From: Candidatus Moraniibacteriota bacterium
GTDB lineage: Bacteria > Patescibacteriota > Minisyncoccia > Moranbacterales > GCA-2747515
Assembly: GCA_029938745.1 (NCBI GenBank)
Contig: JAOZUJ010000002.1
Span: forward strand, 1-41,822
DNA length: 41,822 nucleotides
Reading direction: 5' to 3'
Position numbers and translations under genes: made by a program. Below, piece by piece: positions 9,051-41,822 of this stretch (positions are counted from its first letter, which is position 1; each line of letters opens with the position of its first letter). Under the pieces are notes generated by a model. The model did no database searches. It saw only the letters and a list, made by a program, of their open reading frames with translations, and was not told the origin of the DNA.

Positions 9051-9062
9051 GAGAGTATACGA

Positions 9063-17732: not shown

Positions 17733-17741
17733 AATATTATT

Positions 17742-18989: not shown

Positions 18990-19001
18990 AGCCTAGCTAA
19001 C

Positions 19002-19033
19002 GGTCCAACCGAGGAATGATCCCGGGTTGGACC
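19002..19033 (-). promoter_or_regulatory. GC-rich intra-operon hairpin
   Basis: A 9-bp stem GGTCCAACC/GGTTGGACC with a 14-nt loop, in the 67-nt gap between the ATPase and permease genes. There is no U-tract. Confidence 0.4.
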
Positions 19034-19056
19034 TTTGGTATAAATATAAAACACGC

Positions 19057-19812: not shown

Positions 19813-19821
19813 AAATTTTCT

Positions 19822-20829: not shown

Positions 20830-20884
20830 GTATTTCTTTTAGAACTTTATACTACTCATATATCATACCACACTATTACAAAAT

Positions 20885-20912
20885 AAAAACCACAATTTTC
20901 TTTGTGGTTTTT
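20885..20912 (-). terminator. Intrinsic (bidirectional) terminator separating the two exporter operons
   Basis: An 11-bp stem AAAAACCACAA/TTGTGGTTTTT with a 6-nt loop and T-runs on both strands. It lies 21 nt past the stop at 20933. Confidence 0.75.
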
Positions 20913-20932
20913 GTTTTTTCTTCTGAGTGTTA

Positions 20933-21619
20933 CTATTGTGATGATTGCAATTTTCCGTCTTTGAGCCACACAACTCGATCAACATACTTTTTATCATCAT
21001 CTTCATGTGTCACCATTATAATTGTTTGACCATATTTATCTACTAATTCACGCATAATATCCAAAACAACTGCAGCTGCTTCAGAATCTAAGTTTGCTGT
21101 TGGCTCATCAGCAAATAAAATATCTGGTTTATTTATAATTGCACGTGCTATTGATACACGTTGCTGTTCACCACCAGATAATTCTGATGGAAGATTTTTT
21201 TCACGATCCTGCAATCCCACTCTTTTAATAATCTCGTGCACGTCCTTATCATATTGTATTTTTCGTTTTCCAAGTGCTCTCATGGGTAGCGCAACATTTT
21301 CATATAAATTCAACTCAGGAATCAAAGCATAATCCTGAAATACATATCCAAGCATTTTCAAACGAAATTCCGCACGCTCTGTTTCAGATAATTTAGAAAC
21401 ATCAATACCATCAATTTCAATATATCCTGATGTTGGCCGATCGAGTAACGCAATTTGATGTAAAAAAGTTGATTTACCACTACCACTGCGCCCCATAAGT
21501 GCAACAAATTCACCTCTACGCAATTGCACGTCAATATCTTTAAGTGCATAAACTGGGCTTGGTGTATCTGCCTTATATGTCCTTACAAGATCTTTTGTTT
21601 GTAGAATATATTTTTCCAT
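20933..21619 (-). CDS. ABC transporter ATP-binding protein (MacB/LolD family), exporter 2
   Basis: Walker A GRSGSGKST, signature LSGGEQQRVSIARAI, Walker B ILFADEPTANLD and H-loop VTHE. Confidence 0.9.
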   Translation of the reverse strand: MEKYILQTKDLVRTYKADTPSPVYALKDIDVQLRRGEFVALMGRSGSGKSTFLHQIALLDRPTSGYIEIDGIDVSKLSETERAEFRLKMLGYVFQDYALIPELNLYENVALPMRALGKRKIQYDKDVHEIIKRVGLQDREKNLPSELSGGEQQRVSIARAIINKPDILFADEPTANLDSEAAAVVLDIMRELVDKYGQTIIMVTHEDDDKKYVDRVVWLKDGKLQSSQ

Positions 21620-21631
21620 AGTCTTTATTTA

Positions 21632-22852
21632 TTATCGCATCAATGTGAGAATCTTTTTACGTACCTCTTTTATCGCTGGAATGAGTGAGCCTATAAGACC
21701 AGCAACCACAAAAAGAATTACACTCATACGTAGTGCCTCCCTTTTGATCACAGGTACCATATCTCCCATCGGGAAATCAATTGGATGTCCTCTAAAAAAA
21801 CCAATGACACCAAAATTCATTAACAAAAATCCCAATATAATACCGAGTACAGTATAAAACATCCCTCGAATAATATAGGATTGCATTATAGCACTTTCAG
21901 GAATTCCAATCGCTTTCAATATGCCAATTTGTTTACGCCTATTCACAATATCCACAAAGATAATAATAAATATCACAAGTCCTGCAACAAACGAGCCAAT
22001 AATACGTAATATCGAACCAATCATATCAAAGGATTTATTGATTGTAGCACCAAATGACAATTTCTCATTCCAATCAGAAATTTCATAATTACTCAAATTT
22101 ATTTTTGCAAAATCATCCAATGCTTTTTGCGATAAATGCTTATCAGTAAGTCGCACGATAATTTCACTTGACTCATTTGTTGTTCCAAGTACTGAATTCA
22201 GATCATCTTGAAGAACAAACATTTTTGAATCAGTGTCAAAGTTCTTTGTTTTATAAATTCCTACAATTTCATAATCCCTAACAACATCATTACCATATAT
22301 TGCTGTAATTTTGTCACCTGTCCGCACGCCTTCAAGATCCTCTGGAAATGGTGAGCTACCATACCCGCCTGCTATATCTGCACCAAGCAAAGCCTTGCCA
22401 TAATCACCTTTTTCTAAACATTTTCCCTCAATAATATGTGATTTCAAGTCAATTGAATCATTTTCTATTTCTGGATCTATGCCAACAACACCAGCTCCAA
22501 ATTGTGCAACATCCCTACCATCATTATACTTATCATTCTTGAGCGTAGCACTTGTTCGCAAATGAGTTGCTATACTGCGTACATAGTAAAAATCTTGAAT
22601 TGCATCTATGACATCATTTGTATTTTTGATATATTTATCTCCTGGTCTTGGCTCAATAGTTACCTCGCCGTATTGATAATTAATTTTACCCTCATCCATT
22701 GTAGTGGAAATTCCTTTGAACACAGCATCTACAAACAATAAATTCAAAAAAACAACAAGCATGATCAATACTGTCAAAATAAGTGACCCCTTATCACCAC
22801 GCAAAATAGTTTTAATTGCCAAAAATACTGCCAATTTTATATTACTCCACAT
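21632..22852 (-). CDS. FtsX/MacB-type ABC transporter permease, exporter 2
   Basis: 406 aa. One N-terminal TM helix, an extracytoplasmic domain of about 230 aa and a C-terminal FtsX module (QIGILKAIGIPESAIM...). Confidence 0.8.
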   Translation of the reverse strand: MWSNIKLAVFLAIKTILRGDKGSLILTVLIMLVVFLNLLFVDAVFKGISTTMDEGKINYQYGEVTIEPRPGDKYIKNTNDVIDAIQDFYYVRSIATHLRTSATLKNDKYNDGRDVAQFGAGVVGIDPEIENDSIDLKSHIIEGKCLEKGDYGKALLGADIAGGYGSSPFPEDLEGVRTGDKITAIYGNDVVRDYEIVGIYKTKNFDTDSKMFVLQDDLNSVLGTTNESSEIIVRLTDKHLSQKALDDFAKINLSNYEISDWNEKLSFGATINKSFDMIGSILRIIGSFVAGLVIFIIIFVDIVNRRKQIGILKAIGIPESAIMQSYIIRGMFYTVLGIILGFLLMNFGVIGFFRGHPIDFPMGDMVPVIKREALRMSVILFVVAGLIGSLIPAIKEVRKKILTLMR

Positions 22853-22879
22853 ATTGTTTTATATACAAAATACATTGCC

Positions 22880-23869
22880 TTACTTTTCTTGTGGTACAAC
22901 AATTTTTTCACCTGCAGCAATACCAGAAATAACTTCCACAAATTCATTCCCAATTATTCCCTCTTCAAAATATTTTTTCCCAAATTGTTCTTTAACAGAG
23001 TTTGTATTTAACACATATACAAAATATCCATCTTCATCTTTTTGTGCAAAATCACGAGGCACTACTACAACATTCATCTTTTTTTCAATTTCTATATCAA
23101 CTTCTGCATTCATACCATCAAGAATAGTAACATCATCTTTATCATCAATATCAACAATTGCCTTAAAATATGTGTTATTTTGATTTAATGTACTTCCTGC
23201 ATTCATTGAAACAAAAGTACCATGCACCACTTTATCAGGATATGCATCAAAAATTATGAACGATTTATTTCCCTTCTTCACTTTTGCGATATCTACCTCT
23301 GGAATGAGTGCTTCCACCTGTAAGGATTGTGGATTAATAATGCGCATTGCAATTCCTTGTGCTACTTCACCAACTCGAACATTTTGTTCAATTACAATTC
23401 CATCAATCGGAGAAACAATTGTTGTTTTAGCTGCTTGTGCGTACACTTCATTTAGTGTCTGTCGTGATTGCTCTGTTGCTTTTTTAATGCTTTCTCTTTC
23501 CTCTGGTTTTAGTGTGTCCCACTTTCGCCTTGCCTGTTGTTCTGCCAGCTCTGCACGTTCCACTGCAAGCTTTGCATTATTTATTTGTGCATAAATTGAT
23601 CTTTTGTCCAATCGAAATAGCTCTTGACCTTTCTCAACTGTATCATTTACCGATACATCTACAGATGCAATAAGCGTTGGTAATTCTGATGTAATATCGG
23701 CATAAACATCAGAATTCATTGTTGCATTTACATTAATTGTTTTTTGTACATCAGTTGTAACGACTTGTGATTCTAAATAAAGTTGTTCACTTTTTCGTGA
23801 TCGTACAAAAAAAACAGCAGTTCCAATAAGTACAATAATAATAATTGTAATAATAATCTTTTTCATCAT
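22880..23869 (-). CDS. HlyD/MacA-family periplasmic adaptor, exporter 2
   Basis: 329 aa, a paralog of 19822-20829 (VEKGQELFRLD ... VSPIDGIVIEQNVRVGEVAQG) with an N-terminal TM helix. Confidence 0.8.
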   Translation of the reverse strand: MMKKIIITIIIIVLIGTAVFFVRSRKSEQLYLESQVVTTDVQKTINVNATMNSDVYADITSELPTLIASVDVSVNDTVEKGQELFRLDKRSIYAQINNAKLAVERAELAEQQARRKWDTLKPEERESIKKATEQSRQTLNEVYAQAAKTTIVSPIDGIVIEQNVRVGEVAQGIAMRIINPQSLQVEALIPEVDIAKVKKGNKSFIIFDAYPDKVVHGTFVSMNAGSTLNQNNTYFKAIVDIDDKDDVTILDGMNAEVDIEIEKKMNVVVVPRDFAQKDEDGYFVYVLNTNSVKEQFGKKYFEEGIIGNEFVEVISGIAAGEKIVVPQEK

Positions 23870-27347: not shown

Positions 27348-27581
27348 TTATTTCTTCACAATTTCCCTGAGGTCATATTGTTTTCCCTCTTTTTGCCATT
27401 TCTTCAATGTTCTTATTGCAGAAGTTGATAATCGCACCGTCATCTTTTCTCCCGTTGCAGGATTGATAAGATTTTTTTTCTGAAGATTCACTTTGAACTT
27501 TCGTTTCGTTTTCACTTGTGAGTGAGAAACTTTGTGTCCACTAGCAGAATTTTTTCCTGTAATTTGACATGTTCGAGACAT
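27348..27581 (-). CDS. rpmB: 50S ribosomal protein L28
   Basis: MSRTCQITGKNSASGHKVSHSQVKTKRKFKVNLQKK... matches the conserved L28 N-terminus. Confidence 0.9.
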   Translation of the reverse strand: MSRTCQITGKNSASGHKVSHSQVKTKRKFKVNLQKKNLINPATGEKMTVRLSTSAIRTLKKWQKEGKQYDLREIVKK

Positions 27582-27633: not shown

Positions 27634-27810
27634 TTATGCTTTCTTTTCACGATAAATAGTATGCTTCTTGGCAATTGGATTGAATTTTTTCAATTCAATT
27701 TTGATGCCACGCAATTTTTTTGTATTTTTGTGTGACCAAATGATATGACCCTTTCCTTTCCCACTTTCATCACCAAGGGAAACTAATTTTATAAGATTAT
27801 CCTGAGACAT
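27634..27810 (-). CDS. rpmG: 50S ribosomal protein L33 (58 aa, not in the supplied ORF track)
   Basis: Hand translation: MSQDNLIKLVSLGDESGKGKGHIIWSHKNTKKLRGIKIELKKFNPIAKKHTIYREKKA. The block KN.K....K.EL.KF.P...KHT...E.K is the L33 signature. It has ATG and TAA and ends 52 nt upstream of rpmB. Confidence 0.8.
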   Translation of the reverse strand: MSQDNLIKLVSLGDESGKGKGHIIWSHKNTKKLRGIKIELKKFNPIAKKHTIYREKKA

Positions 27811-27974: not shown

Positions 27975-30900
27975 CTATTTCATTTTCACATCACCTTTCA
28001 TTTTCACATCACCTCTTACTTTTATTTGTCTAGGATTTGGAGTTGTAGATGATGTTGTTGTGAAATTTTCTTCGGATCCATAACTTGTCCCTGCACTATT
28101 TGTTGCTTTTGCTCTGACAAAATATGGTGTATTTGGTGTAAGTCCCGTAAGAACACAAGAGTATGTACCAGCATCATCAATGCCAGCACTGCATTCATTT
28201 GTATATGTGCCACTTACTGTTCCCCATTCTATAAACCTCTCCGGATTTTCACCACCCGTATCTGTTACATTTCCATTTCCTGTCGCTGTAGTTGAATTGA
28301 TATTTGTTATTTGATCTGTTGATACCGTTGGAGCGCTTACTGTACAACCTAATCCAGCATCATTAATTGTCCAGCTGTAATTTGAAATAATATTTGCTCT
28401 CTGGGTTGCGCTAGCACAATAGCTTGCTGATGCATCTAAAGTTACTCCATTTTGCAGAGTTTGTGATTCCCAACCTATTAGTGTTGCGTCATAGCTTGCT
28501 GTTGAAAGATCTGAACCTATAAACATATTTGTCATATTTGTCACATTGTCTACGTGCCATGTACCTAAATTTTGATTGAATGCTGAAGCGGATCTAAACA
28601 TAGTGTCCATACGTGTGACGGATGATGTGTCCCATGAGCTTATGTCTTGGTTGAATGCTGAAGCATTGTAAAACATGCCATTCATACTTGTGACAGAGGA
28701 GGTGGCCCAGGAGCTGATGTCTTGGTTAAATAATGGGGTACTGCTAAACATACCCAGCATATTCGTAACGGAAGTTGTGGTCCATGAGCTTATATTTTGA
28801 TTGAATGCTGAAGCACTGCTAAACATACTGGACATATTTGTGACGGAGGATGTATCCCATAAACTTATATTTCCATTAAATGCAGATGCCGCGTTAAACA
28901 TTTGTGCCATATTTGTAACATTTCCCACTTGCCATGAATTCAGATCTTGATTGAATGTGGATGCATGACTAAACATATTAACCATATTTGTAACAGAAGA
29001 TGTATCCCAAGAATTTATATTTTGATTGAATGCTGAAGCGTAGTAAAACATACTGGACATATTTGTGACAGAGGTAGTGGTCCAAGAGGAGATGTCTTGG
29101 TTGAAAACTGTCGCATATTGAAACATGCCATACATATTTGTCACTGAATTTATGGACCAAGAACTTATATCTTGATTGAATGTGGATGCTCCAGAAAACA
29201 TACGGTCCATATATGTGACAGAAGATGTATCCCATGAACTTATATCTTGGTTAAATGCAGATGCATTGTGAAACATAGCTCCCATATATGTGACAGAAGA
29301 TGTATCCCATGAACTTATATTTCCATTAAATGCAGATGCCTCGTAAAATACTTGTGCCATACTCGTAACATTTCCCACTTGCCATGAATTCAAGTCTTGA
29401 TTGAATGTGGTTGCAAGCAAAAACATGCCAGGCATATATGTGACGGATGATGTGTCCCAGGAACCTATATCTTGATTGAATGCAGATGCACCATAAAACA
29501 TATATCTCATATCTGTGATAGAAGATGTATCCCATGAACCTATGTCTTGATTGAAAGCAATTGCATTATTAAACAGCCATGTCATATTCGTGACAGAAGA
29601 TGTGTCCCATGAGCTTATGTCCTCATTAAATACAGATGCAAAAGAAAACATATATGCCATAGTTGTAACAGAAGATAAATCAGGTACATCTGTAAAAGTT
29701 CCTGTCATGTTACTGCATCCTTGAAAAGCCCTATACATTGACGTCCAAATACCTGTTCCCCATTGATCTATTGAGAGAAGTTTTTCTCTGTCACCAGTAT
29801 TGTTAAAATAAATTTGAGGAAATCCAGTCTTAGCTCCCGTGTTATCTTTTATTCTTATTGTATATGTTCCTGCACTTGCGTAATTGCATGTATAATCTCC
29901 CGTTTGGGCCGCTGCCTCATCAATTCCATCATTATTACAATCAACATTATAATTATATCCACCTCCTGTTGTAGGAATTGTGAATTGCGTGTCTGATGAT
30001 GGACCTATATTATCTGTTTTTACTGTTATGACGAAATTATTGTGACTACAATCTAGTCCTGCGTCATTTATTATCCAAGAGTATATTGAAATAATATTTG
30101 CTCTCTGGGTTGCACTGTTACAATAATGTGCCGATGCATCTAGCGTGACATTATTTTGAAGTGATGGACGTGCATTCCAGCCTATGAGTGTCAAATCATA
30201 ATTTGCTATTGAAAGAGCTGAACCTATGAACATGCTTGCCATATCTATCACATTGTCCACATGCCATACACCCAGATCTTGATCGAATGCTGAGGTATTG
30301 CGAAACATAAATGACATATCTGTGACAGAGGAGGTGGTCCAGGAGCTTATGTCTTGATTGAATGCTGTGGCACTGTTAAACATACTGGACATATCTGTGA
30401 CGGAAGTGGTAGCCCAGGAGCTTATGTCTTGATTGAATGCTAGAGCAGCCTGAAACATATGTGACATATCTGTAACAGAGGAAGTGACCCAGGAGCTAAC
30501 GTCCCCATTGAATGCTGAGGCATAATAAAACATATATGACATATTTGTGACGGAAGAGGTGTCCCAAGTGCTGACGTCCCCGTTGAATACTGAGGCACGC
30601 CAAAACATACGATTCATATCTGTGACGGAAGAGGTGTCCCAAGTGCTGACGTCCCCGTTGAATACTGAAGCGTTGTGAAACATACCAGATATATCTGTAA
30701 CAGAAGACAAATCAGGCATATCTGCAAAATTACCAACCACATTATCACATCCATAAAAAGCTCTGTACATACTAGTCCAAATACCTGTACCCCACTGATT
30801 GATATCTAAAAGTTTTTCTCTATCTCCTATGTTATTAAAGTAAATCCTTGGAAATCCAGTTTTTGCTCCTATATTGTCTTTGATTCTTATTGTATACGTT

Positions 30901-32438
30901 CCTGCACTTCCATAATTACATGTGTAATCGCCTGTCTGAGCTGTTGCCTCGTCAGTTCCATCGTTATTACAATCTACATTATAATTATATCCGATTCCTG
31001 TTGTCGGAATTGTGAATTGCGTGTCTGATGAACTTCCTATGTTATCTGTTTTTACTGTTATGACAAAGTCTTTATGAGTACAATCTAAACCTGCATCAGT
31101 TATTGCCCAATTATACGTTGAGATCATATTAGCTCTCTGGGTTGTACTATCACAATAATGTGATGATGAGCGTAGCACTACATTATCTTTGAGTGCCTGT
31201 GATTCCCATCCTATCAGCAACGCATCATAATTTGCTGTCGAAAAATTAGTTGCATTATACAACATCTGACTTGCATGTGTTAAATTACTAACATCCCATG
31301 TACCTAAATTTTGATTGAAAGAAGTAGCCCCATAGAACATGCTATTTGCGTTTGTCAAAGAAGTCGTAGCCCATGAATTTAAAGGTTGATCAAACCTTGT
31401 TGCATTGTAGAACATAAGAGCCATATTTGTTACAGAAGAGGGTGTCCAGGAGTTTAGAGGTTGATTGAATACAGATGTATAACCAAACGTGCCAGTCATA
31501 GTTGTTACGGAAGATACGTCCCATGAACTTATGTCTTGATTAAATGCAGTTGTACTTTGGAACATCCCATCCATATTTATTAAAGAACCTGTATTCCATG
31601 AATTTATCGGCTGATTAAATACTGCTACTCCAAACATATATTGCATATCTGTTACGGAAGATGGCACCCAAGAGTTTAGAGATTGATTAAATGCAGTTGT
31701 CTGATAAAACATATATGCCATATTCGTTACAGAGGATACATCCCATGAATCTATACCACTATTAAAAGAAGTTGCTGCACGAAACATTTGTGACATATTT
31801 GTTACCGATGATGTATCCCAAGAATTTAAATTTTGATTGAACGACGTGGCACTATTGAACATATTCAGCATATTTGTTACAGAAGATACATCCCATGAAT
31901 CTATATCACTATTAAAAGAAGACGCCATTTGAAACATCCCACTCATACTTGTTACAGAAGACAAGTCAGGCGCATCTGAAAAGTTTCCTGTTAAATTTGG
32001 ACAGGATGTAAAAGCATTGGCCATGGAAGTCCAAATCCCCGTGCCCCACTGCTCAATTGTCATTAACTTCGATCGATCGGAACCAGCGTTAATGGCATAA
32101 AATCTCGGAAAACCAGTTTTTGCTCCTGAGTTATCCTTTATTCTTATTGTATATGTCCCTGCACTTGCATAATTACATGTGTAGCCCGCTGTTTGACCTG
32201 TTGCTTCATCTGAACCATCATTATCACAATCAACATTGTAGTTAATCCCAGTTCCCGCTGCCGGTATAATAAAACTTTGACTCCCTACTGGCACCTGCAC
32301 AGTTATCACAAAATCATCTAATGGTGCCGCCTGCACATCATCTACTGTTGCAAAAAATACAAACGACATCGCAAAAAACACCGCCATTAGCAATGGTATT
32401 TGTTTTTTGTTATAACTTTTTTTGAAAAAATTATTCAT
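27975..32438 (-). CDS. Secreted DUF285/BspA-type leucine-rich-repeat surface protein, three tandem modules plus a C-terminal FN3-like domain
   Basis: The ORF-track start at 32480 is GTG, so I prefer the ATG at 32438 ([37 protein letters not shown] is a signal peptide). Each module has an Ig-like head (FVITV...[13 protein letters not shown]...[16 protein letters not shown]) followed by [17 protein letters not shown] 25-aa repeats. The FN3-like region is about 28056-28340. Confidence 0.85.
28521..29678 (-). repeat. In-frame 75-nt (25-aa) DUF285 repeat array, 15 copies (module 3)
   Basis: Hand count gives 15 FN(Q/G)(D/N)(I/L).SW...(S/N)VT.M..MF units here. There are 9 more at about 31266-31958 and 6 more at about 30246-30713. 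Confidence 0.8.
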
Positions 32439-32490
32439 TATTTTTTGTCTATATAAAACCAGATCAATGATACTACCCACATAATGATTA

Positions 32491-32558: not shown

Positions 32559-35500
32559 TTAATTATTTGCTATTTTTTCAACAATCCACCAGTTTACTTT
32601 TACAGCTTTCTCTACAGTTCCCTCCAAATTGATTACAAATCCATCAAATTCATCATCTTCATCTTTCGATTTTTCTACCCAGCTTGTTGTGCCTGGATTA
32701 TTTTCAAATGTTGTAAATATTGTTGTGTTTTCACTTATTGCATCACTTTTGACAAACACACTTTTACCGTCATTTTTATTTTCATCACTTGTATCCTCCA
32801 CACATTCACTATCCACCAATACATAATTCACTGGGCAAATGCTTACCACACCAATTGTTTCATTTTTTCCACCTGCTATTGTCAATTTTTCTGTTTCAAT
32901 CTCCTGTGCAACTAATTTCACAGTATTCACAACTCCCTCAATTGTTAAGTCACCTTGATCATCTGTGTATACAAGTGTATCTGGATTTATAGAAATAAAG
33001 AAACTCATTAACTCTTCATGTGTTGTTTTTATATCAATCATTCTATTTTCTATGTCATTTATCAAATTTGCATTTACATTTGCTTTTTCTTGCACTGTTA
33101 ATATATTACTATCATTTTTTTGTACTTGTAGGGATAAGTTATTAACCTGGCCTGCGACATCAACAAACTGATTTTCAATATCGCCTAGATTTTCATCTAC
33201 TGACGTTTGTAATTGTTGTAAAGTATTTATGTTTGTATCTGTTTGTAATGATAAGTTTGATACGTTATTTGAGTTTGTTGTTATTAATTGATTTTGTTCT
33301 TTTATTGCTCCTGTAAGTAACGCTGTTATATTTCCATAAGATATTCCATATCCATATTCTTCACTTCCTACTACTACTTCTGGAATTATTTCCTTTACAT
33401 CTTGAGCTATAAAACCTATTTGTCTATTGCTATTTGGATTTGCTCTCCAATTAAAATATATATTTTCTAATGATAAAACTTTATCTAATGAACTCTCCAT
33501 CGGCGTTATGTGTGTTTTTAATCTTTTGTCCGATGAATGTACCCAGCCACTTGTCGTGTACGTTCCCGTTGTTGAACCGTTATAAACTTCTAGTCGTTCA
33601 GTTGGATTTGTTGTACCAATGCCAACATTACCACTTGGCTCAACTGTAAGTTTTGTACCAGCAATATACGTATATGTTCCACCACCTGATGATGAAAATC
33701 CTATTGTTGTTGTCATAAATGTGTCCGATGCAATTGTTGCAATTGTTCGTGTCTCCCCACCAACAGTAATTGTACTACCAACACTAAACGTAGAAGTAAA
33801 CTTTGTATTATACCCTGTTATATTTGTTGTAATTGGTATTAAAAACGATACAGTACCTGGTCCAGTTTCTACTGCTGAACTAGTCACATTAAGTCCTGAG
33901 CCTATTGTGTATGAGCTGGTAGCATTATCTATACCTGAGAAAAAATCATGTGCATTTCCATCAAATTGAATTGATGTATCTTGTGCCACTCCGGAACCAA
34001 TTACCATAGCTGATTCTGTTGCGCTCGTTGCACTTATGAGTAGTTCTCCAGCACTGTTAACTGAGAAATCTGTGTAATTTGAGCTATCATATGACAATCT
34101 CATTTTGTTATCAGTTCCAAAAATGCTTAGTTTTGCATTTGGTGTAGATGTTCCTATGCCAAGTCTATTGTTTGCATCATCCCAAAAGAAATTTGTATCA
34201 TCAGCACCTAGATCTCCTCCATTGTTAAATTGTATTGCTCCTGTGGATCCTGCTACTGCTGTAGAGCTATCAGATGAGAACAGTATTACACTTCCAAATT
34301 TTTTGTTATTTGTCCATGATGTTTCAGTTCCTGAACTTTCATTTGTAACACTCATTGTTACCCAGCTTCCATTATCAGTTACTGAATTTATGAGGTATAA
34401 ACCTGCTTCATTTTGATCATCCAATCTTTGTAAATATATTTGATCTCCACTCTTTAGTGAATTTAATATGTTACTTACTTCTGCATTACTACTTTCTTCT
34501 GAGAAATATATTTCTGTTACACTTGCAACAGTTGCATTATTTAATCTGAAATTTCCATTTCCTGGATCACCGCTTGTTGTTGAGTCCTTGAAGCTCCATT
34601 CAATTTGAAGACTTCCTCCTGTCCCATTATTTGTAAGTGATAGCCAATCAGTTCCGTTGTAACCTTCAAAGTCTGTGCCATTGTATCTTATTGAACCTGT
34701 GTTTGAATTTGTTGTTGTTCCTAAATTAATTGCACCAGCCACTTGCAATCTTTCATTTGGCACGACTGCACCTATCCCAATATTACCACTTGACACTGTT
34801 GTGCCAGTACCATCTATACCTGTCCCAAAAATGAGATTTCCCATTGAAAGTTGATTTGAGCCCGCTGCATTTTGTGCATCAATATCATAACCAATAATAA
34901 GATTATTTGACCCAGTATTAATATTTCCGCCTGCATCATAACCCAACAAAGTATTTGCACTTCCTGATGCATTTCGTCCTGCAAAGCTTCCTAATACAGT
35001 ATTATATGAGCCCGTTGAGCCTGCAGCTAATGCATATTGTCCAATTGCAGTATTATTATCTCCATCTATACCGTTCATCATTGCACGACTACCCATAGCT
35101 GTATTATTGATACCACTATTATTACCAACTAAAGCCATGCGTCCAAATGCGCTGTTATCATTTCCATCTGTATTATTTGCCAATGCACCATATCCACTTG
35201 CTGTATTTGCATATCCATCTAAATTATCTTGTAACGCAATTGAGCCAATGCCAACATTCCAATAACCCGTCGTATTTCTTTCTCCCGCATTATATCCGAT
35301 AAATACATTACGATTATCACTAAAATCATCAGCCTCGCCAGCATGATCACCAATAAATACAGAACCTCCTGAATTCATCACATTTAGTCGTGGACCATCC
35401 ATTGTGAAGTATTCTGTGCCACCAAGATCAAATCTGATAATATCTTCATTTGCATTTTTCTCTGTTTGAATACCTGTATCACCGTCTGTATCCCAGATTG

Positions 35501-38500
35501 CTGTCGGTACACTTCCAGTGGAATCTGTCTGCCACGTTAAATCCCCACTTCCGTTTGTTTTAAGAATTTGTCCATTCGTGCCATCTGTATTCGGAAGGGT
35601 GTAGGCACCAATTGTGAGAGCGTCTGTAAATCTTCCATCTCCATTTACATCTAATTTGTAATCTGGTGTTACTGTGCCAATGCCAACTTTGTGACTACTC
35701 GGACTAATGTACAAACTAGAATCCCAACCTGGTCCTGAATCTCCTGCCGTTAATACATACCCAACATTTCCAAGCGGTAATGCACTGAGAGTTCCTCCAT
35801 CATTGCCATACATCAAGTCTCCTGTGTTGTATGATGTTAGTCCCGTGCCTCCATACGCAACATCTATGATATTTCCTTGCCATGTACCATCTGTAACATA
35901 TCCAGATTCAGATATTTTGAAGTTCCCTGCGATATCAAATAAACTAGATGGAGTTGAAGTTCCAAGACCAAATCTTCCTTGACTATCTACTACAAGAATA
36001 GAAGAATATGTAAAATTCACTGATAGATCCTTTAAGATTGGTACTGATGAGCCATCAGTAGATGTGAAGTATACTTTGTACTGATACCAGTCGTCTCCAT
36101 CATGCGTTGAATTTATGTTCTCTCCTGCGCTAGTTGTGTAATAATCTCCTGTGCCTGTTGGACCGTACCAGGTTGCAGTTGAAAGTCCTGCTTCAGTTCC
36201 AGCTGACCGTAGTTGAATTTCTATATCTGTATTTGTTGGAATTGTTTCTGTCCATTCCACAGTTGTGTAAGTTTGAGCAGAGGCTGGGATATTGATGGCT
36301 TGAGAAGTAAAATCGCCGGAGGGTTTAATACTAATATCATTACTAAAGTAATACATAGAACTTTGTCCGCCTCCATTATGTCCACCTACCACTATATCAA
36401 TATCACCATCATTATCCACATCTGCAAGAGATGGTTTCGCATAATGCCCTACATCTACTGGCAACCAATCAGAACTCACATGTGTCCATGAAGGTGAACT
36501 AGCTGTTCCATCATTTCGGAAATAATAGACGACACCAGTGGTCTCTCCAACTGCCAGATCATAATCACCATCATTATCTATATCAACAAAAAATGGAGCT
36601 GCCTCTAGCCCAACATCAACTGGTAGCCAATTAGAACTCACATGTGTCCATGAAGGTGAACTAGCTGTTCCATCATTTCGGAAATAATCAACATATCCAT
36701 CCCAATTTCCAACAGCCAAATCATAATCGCCATCATTATCTATATCTGCAAGAGTCGGAAACATACTATTCGCTCTGACTGGCACCCAATCAGAGCTCGC
36801 ATGTGTCCATGAGGGTGAACTAGCTGTTCCATCATTTCGGAAATAATTAATTCTATTTTGATCACTCCCTACAACCAAATCATAATCACCATCATTATCC
36901 ATATCTGCAAATGCTGGTGACGCATTAGGACCTCCGCCATTTGGAGAGACTCGAACAGGTAACCAATCAGAGCTCACATGTGTCCAAAATGGAGAACTGG
37001 CAGTACCATCATTGCGAAAATATTCAATACGACCTGTACAATCCCCAACTGCCAAATCGTAATCACCATCATTGTCTATATCTGAAAAAGCTGGTTGTCC
37101 ATTCCATGCACACACACTAACTGGTAACCAATCAGAACTCTCGTGATTCCAATCCGGATTTCCTGGATCACCACCAAGAACAATTTCCGCATTCTTTCCT
37201 GTGTATTGTACATTTGTATCTGATGTTGTTCCTGCATTAAAATCATCATCAGTTGTATCTGTTCTCGATGATGTGTTATTAGCAGATGCATTTATATTAA
37301 AATTACCTGCAATTGAAAGAGTTGATGTTGGTACATCCGTCCCAATTCCTACATTACCTGTGTTGAAATAAATATCTGATCCATCTTCTGTCCATGGAGT
37401 TACAACACTTGTATCTGAACATTCCCAACTTGTACCATCCCATTGTGCGATATTTCCATTTGCACATGTGAGATCTCCTAGTGTGTCATTATCATCTCCA
37501 AACTCTAATCCATCGCCTGCTGCATTTACTTTTACAAATTGATTTGCTGTGTAACTTCCTGGCGTATCTGATAACCCTAGAAATGTTGTTACTCCACCAC
37601 TAGCAACTGAATCAACATACTCTTTTGTTGTAAGAGCAGTATTTCCTCTACTGTTAATTTCTGCAATGCTGAATTGTGGTGCTAGGATGCTTCCATCTGT
37701 ATATATTTCAAATGCATTTGCTCTATTTGCATTGTCTACTCCTATACCTGTTTCATGAATTGTGTCTGAAGATGTTCCAAGATTATACAAACCTGCTGAA
37801 TGTTGATTAGCATTTTGTGCAATTGTATAAGCACCCTCAGCGTGAGAAGATTGTCCCGACGCTGTTGACTCATAACCCTCAGCGTGAGAGCCATATTGAC
37901 CTGATGCTTCTGTGACAAATCCTTCAGCATGTGAACCCCAATAGCCTGATGCGAGAGTCCATCTACCTTCAGCATGTGCAGACTCATTTGTTGCTCTCGA
38001 TGATAATCCCTCAGCATGTGAATAATGTCCTGATGCTGTTGTATGATCACCTTCTGCATGTGATCTATTGCCTGATGCTGTTGTATGACTTCCTTCAGCA
38101 TGAGCAGATGCTCCTGATGCTGTTGTAGTATAGCCTTCAGTATGTGACCCCCATTGACCTGATGATATTGTAGCTTCACCCTCTGCATGTGAAGCTCTCC
38201 CCGATGCTATATTACCAGCACCTTCGGCATGTGTGTAATAATCTGATGCTGTATTATTATATCCTTCTACAAACGAATAAGTACCTGTGGCACCTCTCGT
38301 TGTGCTGGCACTACTACTGTATGAAAAATCAACAGCATTAACACCAATATTGCCATAATCTAATGGATTTCTACCTATTAATCTCCAACCCGTACCACTG
38401 CCCTCATCAAGTGTTTCAAGTCCTGTTGCTATCAGCAATGTTGGATCAGTATCACAAACTAATCCATTTGCAGTTGTGTATGTACAAATTCTTCCATCTG

Positions 38501-41500
38501 TGAGTGTGCCTGTATTTACAGAAAATTCATTTGATCCTGAAAGACCTAGTAATGTTCCTGCTGTATACGTTGTATCATTATCCGTTGGTGTAACCCATTC
38601 AATACTTGAACCTGTTGATGAAAGAATTTGACCACTTGTGCCTATTGTTAGAGTATCTAAATTATCTGTTGCAGATGCAAATATTAGATCTCCTGTATTA
38701 TATGATGTAAGTCCTGTACCTCCGTATGCTGTATCTATTGTCGAACCATTCCATGTTCCTTTTGTTACTACTCCACCTTCATTTATTTGTAGATTTCCTC
38801 CAATGTCAAAGAAACTATCTGGTGCTGTACCTAGTCCAAATCTTCCTTGAGTGTCTACTATGAGAGTTGATGTGTAATCAAAGTTAATTGTTACATCTTT
38901 GAGGGTTGGAACTGATGAGCCATCTGTTGATGTAAGATATGCTTTGTATTGATACCACGTGTCTCCATCATGCGTTGCGTTTATGTTTTCTCCTACACTG
39001 GTTGTATAATAATCTCCTGTTCCTGTTGGACCATACCATGTTGCAGCTGTTAAACCTGCTTCAGTTGATGCAGAACGTATTTGAATTTGGATGTCTGTAT
39101 TTGTTGGAACAGTTTCTGTCCATTCTATTGTTGTGTAACTTGTTGCTGTTGAGTTTATTGGTTGAGAGGTAAAGTCTCCTGTTGGGACAAATGATACTCC
39201 GTTTTGGAAATAATGAATAGCACCAGCTCCATCGCCAACGGCAAGGTCAAGGTCACCATCATTGTCCATATCTGCAAAAGCTGGGGAAGCCGTACTGCCT
39301 ACATCACCAATCCAATCTGAACTAACGTGAGTCCAACTTGGAGATGTCGCATCTCCATCATTTCGAAAATATTCCACATATCCATCATAGCCACCAACAG
39401 CGAGATCTTGATCACCATCATTGTCAATATCTACAAATGCAGGTCTAGCCCTCTCGCCAACATCAACGCCTAACCAATTACTACTGATCAATGACCATGA
39501 CGGTGTAGTAGGAGTACCGTCATTGCGCCAGTATTCAACAAGGCCATTATTTTCACCTAGAGCAAGATCGTAATCACCATCATTATCAATATCTGTAGCT
39601 GCAATCCCTATTAATGTTCCCATATCAACTCCTAACCAATTTGAGCTTACAAGCGTCCAAATTGGCGAACCAATAGTCCCATCATTACGATAATATACTA
39701 CATATCCAGGACTATCTCCAGCAATAAGGTCAGGATCTCCATCATTATCCATATCTGCGAACTCTAGGGAGGCCATAAAAGTGGTTGGTTGTAATACTGA
39801 AGGATCCTCAAATGTCCATAGCGGAATTGCATCTGTCCCATCATTACGATAATAACCTATGTGCTGACTATAGCTAATGAACATATCATAATCACTATCA
39901 TTATCAATATCAATCATTTCTGGACCTGCCCAAGCACTTGTTACCACACCAGTCCAATTAGAACTAAGCTTTGTCCAATTAGGATCATTAGGGTCATCAC
40001 CAAGTGTAATTTCAGCAATTTCTCCATTGTATTGTACTATTGTATCTGATGTTGTTCCTGCATTAAAGTCTTCTTCTGTTGTATCAACTCTACTTGATGT
40101 ACTTGATGACGTGGCTTGAATGTCAAAATTTCCTGCTATTGAAAGACTTGAAGTTGGTGCATCTGTTCCTATTCCTACGTTACCTGTATCAAAATATATA
40201 TCTGATCCATCTTCTGTCCATGGAGTTACAACACTTGTATCTGAACATACCCAATCTGTACCATCCCATTGTGCAATTTCTCCATTTGCACATGCAAGAT
40301 CTTCAAGTGTATCTGTATTTGCTGATGCTGCAGCTAAATCTACATATTCTTTTGTTGTAAGAGATGCATTGCTTGTATTGATTTCTGTAATACTTAGTTC
40401 TGGTGCTAAAATTCTACCATCTGTATAAATTTCAAAAGCATTTGCTCTGTTATCATTATCTATGCCTATGCCTGTTTCGTGAATTGTGTCTGTGCTTGTT
40501 CCTATGTTATATAATCCTGTAGCGAGTGAGCCTTGATTTAAAGCAATTGTTCCTTCTCCCATGGCAACACTGTAATTACCCCTGCTAGCAGTATTGTATC
40601 CTGTTGCCAAACTATAAGTTCCTGTAGCTCCATCACCATAGGCATCGGGCCACACAAGCGCGCCTGCATTCACAGCATAGTTATCCATATCGATACTGCC
40701 ACTATTACCTGTGTTAGTCGTCCTAAGTATTGCACTCACTCTTACATCATCACTTACGTCACGAGAAAAAGTGCCAATTAAGATCCAATTAGACCCATTC
40801 CAATAGTATGCGGATGTAGTTCCACTCACTCTACTTATACGTATACGACGATTTGACCCAATTGTCGCAGCGCCATTTCCACTAGAACCAATTCCATCAT
40901 ATGAATATAAATAATAATGACCGTCAGAATGTATCCTAATTAAATTATAATGCCCACTATCATTATATATACGAAAATCTAACGAAGATCCCATTGGTGG
41001 TGGATTGCCATGATCTATTTGCACATCAAAATCTGATGAGCCACTCAAATAATATTGAGACATTATTCCTGCAGTATATCCCTGTCCAGTAACTTTATTT
41101 AATCTTAATTGATTACTTTGTATATCTGCAGTACTTGTTCCTGTAAATGTCCTATCCCATATTATTGGATTTGGTGCATCACCATCACTTCCTGTAAAGT
41201 CATCATCAACATTACTTGGATAATCATATGTTGTCCCCGAAGATAGATCTACAGCATTATTTCCGATATTTCCATAATTATCAGGATTCTGTCCAACTAA
41301 TCGCCATCCTGTATTTGGGCCTTCTGTAAGCTCTTCTAATCCTGTTGAGAGAAAATCCGATGGACTCGTATTACATTCCAATCCCGTACCTACAACATAT
41401 TTACAAAGAGCACCATCTGACAGAATCCCTTCACTGAGTGAGAATTCTGTACCCGTTAAACTCAAAAGTGTATTACCCGTTGCAACTGAATATGTTGTAT

Positions 41501-41822
41501 CATTATCAGTTCCAAATTCCAACCCATCACCAGCTGCATTTACTTTTACAAATTGATTTGCTGTGTAACTTCCTGGAGTATCTGTAAGTCCAAGGAAAGT
41601 TGTTGTGCCACTCCCAGGTGTTTCTGCCTGCCAACCATTAGTTGTATCGAAGGTTAAAACTTGTCCATCAGTTGGAGACATTGATGAATAAACATCAGAA
41701 AGGTCTGTGATTGATTCTCCTGATATTGTTGTGAGATAACCTTCTGCAGAATGATCTCCCCAATTAAATGCTGTATCCCAATTTGTTGAGTTATTTGTTG
41801 TATCACATACTAAACCTGAACC
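32559..41822 (-). CDS. Giant mosaic surface protein (more than 3087 aa, 5' end outside the window): FG-GAP, LamG-like and YadA-head-like modules with a Peptidase-S74-type C-terminal module
   Basis: The frame stays open upstream of the ATG at 41681 to the window edge. My translation there is ...GSGLVCDTTNNSTNWDTAFNWGDHSAEGYLTTISGESITDLSDVYSS-M..., which resembles internal motifs such as GLVCDTDP. DxDxDGDxDL motifs occur 5 times in each of two blocks. HS-S2717-DKRL-K2722...IGFIAQDVKEIIPEVV is the S74-type motif. Confidence 0.9.
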   Translation of the reverse strand, partial: GSGLVCDTTNNSTNWDTAFNWGDHSAEGYLTTISGESITDLSDVYSSMSPTDGQVLTFDTTNGWQAETPGSGTTTFLGLTDTPGSYTANQFVKVNAAGDGLEFGTDNDTTYSVATGNTLLSLTGTEFSLSEGILSDGALCKYVVGTGLECNTSPSDFLSTGLEELTEGPNTGWRLVGQNPDNYGNIGNNAVDLSSGTTYDYPSNVDDDFTGSDGDAPNPIIWDRTFTGTSTADIQSNQLRLNKVTGQGYTAGIMSQYYLSGSSDFDVQIDHGNPPPMGSSLDFRIYNDSGHYNLIRIHSDGHYYLYSYDGIGSSGNGAATIGSNRRIRISRVSGTTSAYYWNGSNWILIGTFSRDVSDDVRVSAILRTTNTGNSGSIDMDNYAVNAGALVWPDAYGDGATGTYSLATGYNTASRGNYSVAMGEGTIALNQGSLATGLYNIGTSTDTIHETGIGIDNDNRANAFEIYTDGRILAPELSITEINTSNASLTTKEYVDLAAASANTDTLEDLACANGEIAQWDGTDWVCSDTSVVTPWTEDGSDIYFDTGNVGIGTDAPTSSLSIAGNFDIQATSSSTSSRVDTTEEDFNAGTTSDTIVQYNGEIAEITLGDDPNDPNWTKLSSNWTGVVTSAWAGPEMIDIDNDSDYDMFISYSQHIGYYRNDGTDAIPLWTFEDPSVLQPTTFMASLEFADMDNDGDPDLIAGDSPGYVVYYRNDGTIGSPIWTLVSSNWLGVDMGTLIGIAATDIDNDGDYDLALGENNGLVEYWRNDGTPTTPSWSLISSNWLGVDVGERARPAFVDIDNDGDQDLAVGGYDGYVEYFRNDGDATSPSWTHVSSDWIGDVGSTASPAFADMDNDGDLDLAVGDGAGAIHYFQNGVSFVPTGDFTSQPINSTATSYTTIEWTETVPTNTDIQIQIRSASTEAGLTAATWYGPTGTGDYYTTSVGENINATHDGDTWYQYKAYLTSTDGSSVPTLKDVTINFDYTSTLIVDTQGRFGLGTAPDSFFDIGGNLQINEGGVVTKGTWNGSTIDTAYGGTGLTSYNTGDLIFASATDNLDTLTIGTSGQILSSTGSSIEWVTPTDNDTTYTAGTLLGLSGSNEFSVNTGTLTDGRICTYTTANGLVCDTDPTLLIATGLETLDEGSGTGWRLIGRNPLDYGNIGVNAVDFSYSSSASTTRGATGTYSFVEGYNNTASDYYTHAEGAGNIASGRASHAEGEATISSGQWGSHTEGYTTTASGASAHAEGSHTTASGNRSHAEGDHTTASGHYSHAEGLSSRATNESAHAEGRWTLASGYWGSHAEGFVTEASGQYGSHAEGYESTASGQSSHAEGAYTIAQNANQHSAGLYNLGTSSDTIHETGIGVDNANRANAFEIYTDGSILAPQFSIAEINSRGNTALTTKEYVDSVASGGVTTFLGLSDTPGSYTANQFVKVNAAGDGLEFGDDNDTLGDLTCANGNIAQWDGTSWECSDTSVVTPWTEDGSDIYFNTGNVGIGTDVPTSTLSIAGNFNINASANNTSSRTDTTDDDFNAGTTSDTNVQYTGKNAEIVLGGDPGNPDWNHESSDWLPVSVCAWNGQPAFSDIDNDGDYDLAVGDCTGRIEYFRNDGTASSPFWTHVSSDWLPVRVSPNGGGPNASPAFADMDNDGDYDLVVGSDQNRINYFRNDGTASSPSWTHASSDWVPVRANSMFPTLADIDNDGDYDLAVGNWDGYVDYFRNDGTASSPSWTHVSSNWLPVDVGLEAAPFFVDIDNDGDYDLAVGETTGVVYYFRNDGTASSPSWTHVSSDWLPVDVGHYAKPSLADVDNDGDIDIVVGGHNGGGQSSMYYFSNDISIKPSGDFTSQAINIPASAQTYTTVEWTETIPTNTDIEIQLRSAGTEAGLSTATWYGPTGTGDYYTTSAGENINSTHDGDDWYQYKVYFTSTDGSSVPILKDLSVNFTYSSILVVDSQGRFGLGTSTPSSLFDIAGNFKISESGYVTDGTWQGNIIDVAYGGTGLTSYNTGDLMYGNDGGTLSALPLGNVGYVLTAGDSGPGWDSSLYISPSSHKVGIGTVTPDYKLDVNGDGRFTDALTIGAYTLPNTDGTNGQILKTNGSGDLTWQTDSTGSVPTAIWDTDGDTGIQTEKNANEDIIRFDLGGTEYFTMDGPRLNVMNSGGSVFIGDHAGEADDFSDNRNVFIGYNAGERNTTGYWNVGIGSIALQDNLDGYANTASGYGALANNTDGNDNSAFGRMALVGNNSGINNTAMGSRAMMNGIDGDNNTAIGQYALAAGSTGSYNTVLGSFAGRNASGSANTLLGYDAGGNINTGSNNLIIGYDIDAQNAAGSNQLSMGNLIFGTGIDGTGTTVSSGNIGIGAVVPNERLQVAGAINLGTTTNSNTGSIRYNGTDFEGYNGTDWLSLTNNGTGGSLQIEWSFKDSTTSGDPGNGNFRLNNATVASVTEIYFSEESSNAEVSNILNSLKSGDQIYLQRLDDQNEAGLYLINSVTDNGSWVTMSVTNESSGTETSWTNNKKFGSVILFSSDSSTAVAGSTGAIQFNNGGDLGADDTNFFWDDANNRLGIGTSTPNAKLSIFGTDNKMRLSYDSSNYTDFSVNSAGELLISATSATESAMVIGSGVAQDTSIQFDGNAHDFFSGIDNATSSYTIGSGLNVTSSAVETGPGTVSFLIPITTNITGYNTKFTSTFSVGSTITVGGETRTIATIASDTFMTTTIGFSSSGGGTYTYIAGTKLTVEPSGNVGIGTTNPTERLEVYNGSTTGTYTTSGWVHSSDKRLKTHITPMESSLDKVLSLENIYFNWRANPNSNRQIGFIAQDVKEIIPEVVVGSEEYGYGISYGNITALLTGAIKEQNQLITTNSNNVSNLSLQTDTNINTLQQLQTSVDENLGDIENQFVDVAGQVNNLSLQVQKNDSNILTVQEKANVNANLINDIENRMIDIKTTHEELMSFFISINPDTLVYTDDQGDLTIEGVVNTVKLVAQEIETEKLTIAGGKNETIGVVSICPVNYVLVDSECVEDTSDENKNDGKSVFVKSDAISENTTIFTTFENNPGTTSWVEKSKDEDDEFDGFVINLEGTVEKAVKVNWWIVEKIANN
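37812..38231 (-). repeat. Ten tandem 14-15-aa (S/A)H(A/T)EG-x3-(A/S)SG repeats (YadA-head / Hep_Hag-like beta-roll)
   Basis: Residues 1151-1290 of the giant ORF read HAEGAGNIASGRAS HAEGEATISSGQWGS HTEGYTTTASGASA HAEGSHTTASGNRS HAEGDHTTASGHYS and so on. The first H codon was verified at 38229-38231. Confidence 0.7.

Follow-up and report, generated by a model that had tools for sequence, protein, structure and literature searches.

The window analysed here is the entire 41,822-bp NCBI contig JAOZUJ010000002.1 of a Candidatus Moraniibacteriota bacterium. Its minus strand carries, at 32559-41822, a giant open reading frame (ORF) of 3087 sense codons and a stop codon, and the encoded protein (hereafter the giant) combines FG-GAP propellers, repeat heads, a lectin-like fold and a long shaft with a Peptidase_S74 domain, a coiled coil and a terminal knob. 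We consider it probable that the giant is a secreted homotrimeric surface adhesion fibre of a member of the candidate phyla radiation (CPR), assembled and trimmed by its S74 domain. The same window holds a complete 1299-aa paralogue together with genes for malic enzyme, VIT1, a thioredoxin-like protein, two HlyD/FtsX-MacB/ABC sets, RmuC, glycosyltransferases, a TPR/LytR_C protein, tRNAs and rpmB/rpmG, and the cluster mates of the window's proteins (at least 90% identity) come from metagenome-assembled genomes (MAGs) named 'Patescibacteria group bacterium'.

The reading frame and its modular order

Residue numbering begins with the codon at the window edge (41822, minus strand), so that the numbers of the initial annotation of this DNA equal ours minus 47. 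The giant's frame is open to this edge and, since the window is the whole contig, the 5' end of the gene is not recoverable from it. Forty-seven sense codons (GSGLVCDTT...NWDTAFNW) precede the ATG at 41681, and GSGLVCDTT echoes the internal linkers ANGLVCDTD (~1118) and GTGLECNTS (~146). Because these codons repeat an internal linker motif, the gene extends upstream of 41822, in agreement with the initial annotation, which had placed the true start outside the window. A 63-mer at the window edge has no exact match in GTDB genomes or JGI metagenomes, and no near-identical N-terminal fragment is present among the 94 matches of a homologue search with one segment of the giant; the sole overlapping sequence found is a 4.7-kb Logan contig from SRR21545381 that shares the malic-enzyme region. 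Both ends of the contig fall within genes. In the visible 3087 aa there is no transmembrane segment, and neither the giant nor its paralogue has an NCBIfam match. Homologue searches of the giant were run with three segments rather than at full length. The visible part of the giant, and the paralogue, are laid out as follows, with the basis of each assignment in brackets.

41217-41822, minus strand: N-terminal linker modules, aa 1-202, cut by the contig end, with TTFLGLTDTP, Cys140/Cys150 and a GWRLVG linker (self-comparison)
40632-41216, minus strand: ConA-like (lectin/glucanase-fold) jelly-roll, aa 203-397, bounds DDDFTG... / ...DMDNYAVNAGALVWP (AlphaFold2 model and Foldseek)
40308-40631, minus strand: short YadA-head-like repeats and neck (NRANAFEIYTDG...LTTKEYVD), copy A, aa 398-505 (YadA_head, sub-threshold)
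39987-40307, minus strand: Cys loop CANGEIAQWDGTDWVC, GNVGIGTDAP junction and pre-propeller segment, aa 506-612 (motifs; conserved in copy B and L002)
39186-39986, minus strand: FG-GAP propeller 1, aa 613-879, five ~53-aa repeats with DxDxDGxxD calcium loops, a lone PNWTKLSSNWT strand first (Pfam, repeat model)
38868-39185, minus strand: post-propeller domain copy A, aa 880-985, ~105 aa, WTE..P.NTDI.I.IRSA...WYGPTGT..YYT (conserved elsewhere)
38241-38867, minus strand: GRFGLGT junction and start of super-module copy B, aa 986-1194, with Cys1113/1123 and GWRLIG (self-comparison, motifs)
37593-38240, minus strand: HAEG block (~10 units of 14-15 aa) and neck copy B, aa 1195-1410 (YadA_head, period)
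37173-37592, minus strand: TTFLGLSDTP, Cys loop CANGNIAQWDGTSWEC and GNVGIGTDVP junction, copy B, aa 1411-1550 (self-comparison, motifs)
36321-37172, minus strand: FG-GAP propeller 2, aa 1551-1834, five repeats and an upstream PDWNHESSDWL strand (Pfam, motifs, repeat model)
36003-36320, minus strand: post-propeller domain copy B, aa 1835-1940 (self-comparison)
35373-36002, minus strand: shaft segment, aa 1941-2150, with junctions GRFGLGT (1951) and KVGIGT (2046) (motifs; coverage by relatives rises from aa ~2000)
34788-35372, minus strand: 17-residue beta-strand repeat block N-T-A-x-G-x-x-A-L-x-x-N-x-x-G-x-x, ~10 units, aa 2151-2345 (period, relatives)
33663-34787, minus strand: shaft, aa 2346-2720, with GIGT-type junctions at 2348 and 2554 and a third (2733) just inside the next segment (motifs; no Pfam match)
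33321-33662, minus strand: Peptidase_S74 chaperone/autoprotease, aa 2721-2834, predicted dyad Ser2764/Lys2769 (Pfam, profile against PDB)
32988-33320, minus strand: heptad coiled coil, aa 2835-2945, ~110 residues (periodicity)
32562-32987, minus strand: beta-rich linker and terminal 8-strand beta-sandwich knob (~2987-3084, ending VKVNWWIVEK), aa 2946-3087 (AlphaFold2, BFVD)
32559-32561, minus strand: stop codon of the giant ORF (translation)
12381-16280, minus strand: complete 1299-aa paralogue with an N-terminal Sec-type signal/anchor (MSHKNIKKLIKHCLSYTIGLFVFSIILTTVVTAAP), shaft, S74, coiled coil and knob (translation, Pfam, alignment)

A super-module of ~950 aa occurs twice in this sequence. 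It starts with a GWRL linker, a head region, the neck and the Cys loop CANGxIAQWDGTxWxC, whose motif is of the putative disulfide type, and it continues with a GNVGIGT junction, an FG-GAP propeller, the ~105-aa post-propeller domain and a GRFGLGT junction. The head region consists of the ConA-like insert and a short head in copy A and of the long HAEG head in copy B, and both super-modules are followed by the 17-residue-repeat shaft, more shaft, S74, the coiled coil and the beta-sandwich knob. Eight (V/F/L)G(I/L)G(T/A) junction motifs stand at module boundaries along the giant. Self-comparison reveals a diverged tandem duplication in which aa 399-1076 match aa 1306-2033 with 55-68% protein identity and ~69% DNA identity; further self-matches pair aa 105-194 with 1080-1167 (57%) and aa 72-109 with 1410-1447 (92%).

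Such a gene might be an assembly chimera of several repeat-containing genes: it holds repeats, and the contig ends inside it, as is also the case for its relatives L002, P0237 and P0241. Contig ends cut P0354 as well, and this fate of several relatives that share the giant's C-terminal cassette is typical of repeat-rich genes. We nevertheless consider a chimera very improbable. The frame is uninterrupted over 9.26 kb at a GC content of ~36-40%, and collapse of repeats inside the ORF is unlikely because DNA identity between the internal copies is only ~69%, and their longest near-identical stretch is 109 nt at 85%. Furthermore, the order from Cys loop through propeller, post-propeller domain, junctions, S74 and coiled coil to knob matches that of the independent L002, an ORF of at least 1318 aa with a single propeller on DYDB01000013.1 (~40% GC, labelled Micavibrio sp.).

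Propellers, heads, lectin-like fold and shaft

The initial annotation described two FG-GAP blocks with five motifs each, and both blocks are found where it had placed them. Pfam FG-GAP_3 matches eight stretches of the giant (E=9.7e-43, 145 bits, cut-off 26.9) and Pfam FG-GAP matches it as well (E=5e-13, 49 bits, cut-off 22.1), while ten D(I/M/V)DNDGDxD(L/M/I) loops lie at 638/690/744/798/851 and at 1581/1640/1693/1747/1801, with a spacing of 52-59 aa. Propeller 2 is 54-68% identical to propeller 1. A hidden Markov model (HMM) built from the ten repeats recognizes exactly five full repeats in each block of the giant and in the block at ~540-1345 of L002. It also yields an extra partial match, to the last strand of the unit, upstream of each giant block (PNWTKLSSNWT at 613-623, PDWNHESSDWL at 1551-1565); the fifth repeat itself is without this strand.

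Canonical integrin propellers have seven blades. The giant's blocks share the HMM matches and the DxDxDGxxD loops with the FG-GAP propellers of integrin-alpha, yet they depart from these by having five repeats per block instead of seven, a number conserved in three independent blocks (two in the giant, one in L002), and by the velcro-type extra strand of the giant's blocks. Since an additional upstream strand combined with a fifth repeat that lacks it is the signature of velcro closure, we infer from the sequence that the FG-GAP blocks may form closed five-bladed propellers. If closed, the five-repeat unit would be a structural novelty. The two copies of the domain that follows each propeller are 77% identical to each other, and this domain is conserved also in L002, P0354, P0369 and P0249; it has no match in Pfam, and a PDB search yields only CBM6 at E~1.

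The HAEG repeats reported in the initial annotation are confirmed at ~1195-1340 with a period of 14-15 aa, and in the segment-wise Pfam scan they match YadA_head at 26.2 bits (cut-off 25); the block also matches phrog_25468 (E=1.7e-22), and about 70 of the 94 module relatives cover it together with neck copy B. The shorter head of copy A remains below the same cut-off of 25 (23.7 bits at aa 399-422), and the module at aa 398-505 to which it belongs is common to most of these 94 matches. The N(N/T)(T/S)A.G-type region, which had likewise been called YadA-head-like, is a real repeat of ~10 units at aa 2172-2341, but its period is 17 residues and YadA_head has no match at E<=1 within aa 2157-2337. 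We thus rejected the YadA-head label for this region. It is the HAEG block, slightly above the YadA_head cut-off, that appears to be the YadA-head-like repeat, not the N-T-A-x-G block.

The latter instead belongs to the shaft and is the best-populated part of the giant. At E<=1e-5, 1470 proteins match the giant's C-terminal third, and all but one of the 120 relatives listed cover the N-T-A-x-G block; most of these listed relatives carry a precomputed PF26696 (PTL_trimer) annotation and a C-terminal S74 domain. Over aa 2030-2400 the shaft is 30-53% identical to its relatives. The 17-residue block thus appears homologous to PF26696-annotated proteins, an assignment made through the precomputed annotation of relatives and not through an HMM match of the giant itself. 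Towards the C-terminus, PHROG 5481 (tail fibre) matches aa 2436-2859 weakly.

A domain present in copy A only was initially taken as a LamG/ConA-like segment. This label is upheld at the level of the fold, with moderate confidence, and not by sequence profiles: aa 203-397 have no Pfam match at E<=1 and no PDB match by sequence or by a 4-sequence profile. The AlphaFold2 (AF2) model of this region is all-beta with ~14 strands in a two-sheet jelly-roll (mean predicted local distance difference test, pLDDT, 63; predicted TM-score, pTM, 0.64), and a Foldseek search of the PDB with this model yields 133 matches at E<=1e-3, the best 50 of which are almost all ConA-like lectins or glucanases (ERGIC-53, legume lectins, GH16, YwfG) at a TM-score of ~0.5. 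The confidence of the model and its ~10% identity to these templates are too low for carbohydrate- or Ca2+-binding residues to be located. P0238 contains one copy of the same domain and P0236 at least two; the latter is a 756-aa protein from an ENA metagenome with a precomputed PF07622 annotation, and its copies run from DDDFTG to FDNFKVNSGT. Since P0236 is built from repeated copies, the ConA-like domain seems to circulate as an independent module.

The S74 cassette and its genomic setting

Pfam Peptidase_S74 (PF13884) matches aa 2764-2817 with E=8.7e-15 and 55.2 bits (cut-off 22). The motif SSDKRLK starts at residue 2763, nt 33536, which is precisely the position (aa 2716 in its numbering) at which the initial annotation had recognized an S74 motif. 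A profile of the cassette retrieves S74 domains of known structure from the PDB, namely 8jov (E=4e-10), 6f45 (2e-6) and that of MYRF (7dc3, 5e-5), and the dyad Ser2764/Lys2769 is in register with SASDERLK, SSDRRIK and MYRF in these solved structures. The S-x4-K dyad of S74 corresponds to S911/K916 in endoNF and to S587/K592 in MYRF, where the two residues are catalytic and the chain is cut just N-terminal to the serine, in the trimer only (PMC8326128). By analogy, we predict that the giant is cut between Ser2763 and Ser2764, which would release 324 residues; trimerisation and self-cleavage of the giant are themselves deduced from this likeness.

The initial annotation let a coiled coil and a terminal domain follow S74 as far as 32562, and both are present. 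Residues 2835-2945 contain no proline, and their hydrophobic periodicity has a power of 86.8 at a period of 3.5 residues, a value reached by none of 2000 shuffles. C-terminal coiled-coil helices are a feature of S74 proteins; those of the giant are far longer than in known members, and their trimeric state is a prediction. For the terminal knob (~2987-3084), the AF2 model is a sandwich of eight beta-strands with a pLDDT of 75-93. It has no significant match among PDB structures. In BFVD, its best matches are proteins with a K1-lyase C-terminal domain (E ~2e-3, probability 1.0), and it superimposes on the C-terminal knobs of pectate-lyase-type tailspikes with a root-mean-square deviation of 2.5-3.5 Å over ~98 columns. 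Pfam K1-lyase_C (PF24146) does not match the giant's knob at E<=1; it matches one of seven members of the knob family (E=1.6e-6), and P0354 reaches 25.1 bits against a cut-off of 27. The modelled resemblance of the knob to K1-lyase_C is suggestive.

The coiled coil, and indeed the whole cassette with its ending (F/V)(D/N)W(F/W)(I/V)(V/L), is conserved in the paralogue, L002, P0235, P0237 and P0239-P0241. In relatives of the Bacteroidota type, S74 is near-terminal, with 40-160 aa separating its start from the end of the protein, and the similarity to sequenced phages is limited to the S74 core (~85 residues) and never extends to coiled coil, knob or propellers. The 270-residue extension after S74 therefore appears particular to this small family.

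This extension gives some weight to the view that S74 is a structural relic without self-cleavage, the coiled coil and knob forming a permanent distal tip or a base that binds the cell wall. An extension of this kind is atypical, its retention in at least eight proteins suggests a function of its own rather than disposal, and the fold of the knob seems to resemble the C-terminal knobs of tailspikes. Yet in the cassette alignment SDxRxK does not vary among the giant, the paralogue and L002, and it is present in P0235, P0237 and P0240 (P0239 has SDARLK, and P0241 lacks the motif), all this in register with active S74 domains. As the catalytic residues are conserved, we argue that activity has been retained and consider a relic unlikely.

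A phage, prophage or tailocin tail fibre would be the obvious reading of the cassette taken by itself, given that phage fibres and tailspikes are the best-known carriers of S74 and of a K1-lyase_C-like knob and that PHROG tail-fibre families match the S74 region of the giant (the PHROGs scan covered four large proteins of the window). The genomic setting speaks otherwise. The neighbours are chromosomal (rpmB/rpmG, malic enzyme, VIT1, transporters, tRNAs), and no phage structural, replication or lysis family was found among the Pfam-scanned genes of the window, several small ORFs lying outside that scan. Cassette relatives are likewise chromosomal: P0237, in a Patescibacteria MAG, lies near SecY and ThyX, P0241 has MurJ and glycosyltransferases in its vicinity, and P0240 immediately precedes the EF-Tu/S10 ribosomal operon. 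Phage matches end at the S74 core, and none of the phage fibres matched resembles a protein of more than 3087 aa with FG-GAP propellers. We rejected the phage origin, to which we attach hardly any probability, because the context is cellular. The giant's gene is a chromosomal gene of Patescibacteria, and its neighbours move it from a phage-like setting to that of a cellular CPR surface protein.

Several neighbouring genes were noted in their own right. Downstream of the giant by 78 nt, on the same strand and with no convincing terminator between, lies a gene (27975-32480, minus strand) for a 1501-aa secreted PARCEL/DUF285 repeat protein (Pfam DUF285, 1297 bits; NCBIfam Mbov_0838 family) that has three ~450-aa super-repeats, an fn3-like C-terminus and probably a GTG start; the two genes may be co-transcribed. 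What appears as a 776-nt gap beyond it contains small ORFs, judged by eye to be L28-like (27348-27581, minus strand; MSRTCQITGK...) and L33-like (27634-27810, minus strand), followed by a strong terminator-like hairpin with a 17-bp stem at 27300-27263. Between the two fibre genes are two consecutive MacB-type efflux or export sets, each with an HlyD-like adaptor, FtsX/MacB permease(s) and an ABC ATPase (16479-23869, minus strand). The sole large gene on the plus strand (9042-11429) is a TTG-start ORF of 795 aa with no Pfam or NCBIfam match. A tRNA cluster opens the contig (1-54, 170-244 and 251-324, minus strand) and includes, besides tRNA-Arg(TCT) and tRNA-Lys(CTT), a tRNA truncated by the contig end (Rfam, 35.9 bits).

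Relatives, the proposed fibre and its significance

The paralogue matches Pfam S74 with E=1e-15, and its aa 173-520 match aa 2024-2400 of the giant, that is, the 17-residue shaft; its N-terminal hydrophobic segment is long enough to serve as an anchor. The initial annotation called the combination of modules in the giant unusual for one polypeptide, and this proved right, the combination being rare though not unique. The FG-GAP propeller alone is very common, with 21,823 representative clusters. Among the 150 best FG-GAP representatives, however, S74 also occurs only in P0354 (propeller, post-propeller domain, S74 and extension) and in P0291 (4745 aa, C-terminal S74), and a pattern-seeded scan of 185,579 GTDB species representatives, of limited sensitivity, gave a match beyond the propeller only in L002. 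FG-GAP_2 propellers accompany head-neck or PTL_trimer modules in the metagenomic proteins P0019, P0036, P0049, P0070 and P0159, so there are precedents for a trimeric fibre into which globular binding domains are inserted. The full set of twin five-repeat FG-GAP_3 blocks, ConA-like domain, YadA-type head, PTL-type shaft, S74 and extension is rare.

Closest to the giant are L002 and P0354, which share its order of Cys loop, five-repeat FG-GAP_3 block, post-propeller domain, junctions, S74, coiled coil and knob, with identities to the giant of 47% and up to 64%, respectively. Both have a single propeller and, in their visible parts, neither a ConA-like domain nor a HAEG block, and both are cut by contig ends. 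L002, L067 and L068 show no synteny with the window beyond the fibre gene. The contig of L002 has ~38-43% GC and is labelled as Micavibrio, an alphaproteobacterial predator, whereas the sole other cassette relative with an organism label, P0237, belongs to a Patescibacteria MAG; the Micavibrio label may thus reflect mis-binning or horizontal transfer. P0240 (L071:252-3579) has no signal peptide, and a 460-aa ORF before it overlaps it by 8 nt, which may represent a split or frameshifted fibre gene.

More widely, Bacteroidota and other phyla have cellular 'tail fiber domain-containing proteins' (for example P0098 of a Flavobacteriaceae MAG and P0030 of Winogradskyella). These too are long proteins of beta-repeats, encoded on chromosomes and ending in S74, and they share with the giant the 17-residue shaft and/or the head-neck module and a cellular genomic context. 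They are shorter (about 650-1800 aa), their S74 is essentially terminal and, among the relatives listed, none has FG-GAP_3, a ConA-like insert or a long coiled coil with knob, all of which the giant has. On a Winogradskyella chromosome (L069:7896-12712), two tandem YadA_head and Peptidase_S74 genes lie amid the housekeeping genes FtsK, LolA and LptF/G, with a Por_Secre_tail gene nearby; such tandem genes mark cellular S74 fibres as common in Bacteroidota. Cellular S74-terminated fibres are common, and it is the FG-GAP_3 insertion and the post-S74 extension that are the rare parts. Our literature search returned no functional study of cellular S74-terminated fibres and no relevant study on S74 with FG-GAP, on PTL_trimer or on S74 in bacterial adhesins.

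Among characterised systems, phage fibres and tailspikes (K1F endosialidase, T5 pb1, the S16 long tail fibre 6f45, 8jov) share with the giant the Ser-Lys dyad, upstream GIGT-type junctions and a beta shaft, trimeric by prediction in the giant, to which the K1-lyase_C-like knob may be added. In phage fibres, however, the chaperone comes last and is discarded, whereas in the giant 270 conserved residues follow it and the gene is not in a phage. MYRF, a membrane-bound transcription factor of eukaryotes that carries an ICA domain, exemplifies the cellular, non-viral use of S74 and cleaves itself through a Ser-Lys dyad in a trimer-dependent manner (PMC8326128). Its structure 7dc3 is a direct PDB sequence match and, as in the giant, functional sequence continues after S74; but MYRF has a C-terminal membrane anchor and an N-terminal transcription factor, while the giant has no visible transmembrane segment and is presumably extracellular. 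Trimeric autotransporter adhesins (YadA, UspA1, AtaA) have in common with the giant the neck, the coiled coil and the design of multiple heads as beads on a fibre, and the giant's 14-residue repeats appear akin to those of their heads. They differ in that a membrane anchor trimerises them, a task that would fall to S74 in the giant: Pfam scans of the whole protein and of its C-terminal segment give no YadA_anchor or YadA_stalk match, and the giant's lineage lies outside the Proteobacteria in which these adhesins are typical. Giant surface proteins of the CPR predator Vampirococcus lugosii (1392-4163 aa; integrin, fibronectin and DUF11 domains) are of the same size class and CPR lineage, carry integrin-type repeats and have been proposed to act in host attachment; the passages of that account considered here mention no S74, YadA-head or trimeric architecture (PMC8080830). 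Cellular S74-terminated fibres and giant CPR surface proteins are thus known, and the elaborate architecture of the giant is new.

These likenesses suggest a mechanism, drawn from characterised S74 proteins (endosialidase, T5 pb1, MYRF) and trimeric adhesins. The giant would be exported by Sec, with a signal such as that of the paralogue, and three S74 domains with their coiled coils would then associate at the C-terminal end. This trimer would nucleate folding of the shaft and set its register from the C-terminal end. Once the protein is trimeric, Ser2764/Lys2769 would cut before Ser2764, and the 324-residue fragment of S74, coiled coil and knob would detach. The missing N-terminus would fix the mature fibre to the cell, and at intervals along its shaft the fibre would display triplets of Ca2+-dependent propellers, lectin-like domains and beta-roll heads, which could serve as multivalent sites for glycans or proteins of the host cell or matrix.

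The initial annotation had already proposed a very long trimeric fibre with binding modules in series, and the S74 dyad in register with solved structures, the YadA-like repeats, the PTL_trimer-like shaft and the long heptad coiled coil support this proposal; the fibre is very probably homotrimeric, a state that we deduce from these features. Multivalent binding fits the episymbiotic lifestyle of CPR bacteria. For the CPR predator Vampirococcus, a role of giant integrin-domain surface proteins in host attachment has been proposed (PMC8080830).

Several points weigh against an adhesion fibre trimmed by S74. The N-terminus lies beyond the contig end, and export and anchoring are surmised from the paralogue only, while no signal peptide is obvious at the start of P0239 or P0240 (the ORF overlapping P0240 may be its N-terminal part). 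The ConA-like and knob assignments come from medium-confidence monomer models on shallow alignments of 4 and 7 sequences, respectively. Characterised S74 domains are essentially C-terminal, so that the 270-residue extension has no studied precedent and cleavage or release might differ.

The giant could also be a released extracellular protein or a scaffold of the matrix or envelope, such as a fibrous coat or a network for cell-cell aggregation, instead of a host-directed adhesin. No anchoring motif is visible in 3087 aa, the downstream gene on the same strand encodes a large secreted PARCEL/DUF285-type repeat protein, and PMC8080830 links the giant proteins of Vampirococcus to a generally fibrous surface. 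But the lectin fold, FG-GAP and YadA-head repeats are typical ligand-binding modules, and the N-terminal hydrophobic segment of the paralogue could act as an anchor. A scaffold, which would differ from the adhesion fibre in its target and not in its molecular mechanism, seems to us distinctly unlikely.

A bolder version of the adhesion fibre, possible though we would not expect it, makes S74, in this family associated with Patescibacteria, a maturation switch that would split the precursor into two functional trimers, namely the giant fibre and a 324-residue trimer of S74, coiled coil and knob with its own role in binding, anchoring or signalling. This would be a bacterial extracellular counterpart of MYRF-type processing, and the FG-GAP blocks would be a previously undescribed closed five-bladed propeller of the integrin type, presented three at a time on the shaft.

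In summary, the incomplete gene, its origin in a MAG and the inferential nature of all functional statements limit the value of the giant. Its most interesting points are the five-repeat FG-GAP unit and what the conserved coiled coil and knob behind S74 do and become. The small subfamily with a coiled coil and knob conserved after the cleavage site is biochemically tractable, and the giant highlights how large the class of cellular S74-terminated fibres is, with more than 1000 relatives. To our knowledge, how the ultra-small CPR/Patescibacteria recognize and hold their hosts is largely unknown beyond type IV pili. The giant's gene may point to a second attachment apparatus, a very long fibre that would be built with a phage-type self-cleaving trimerisation chaperone.

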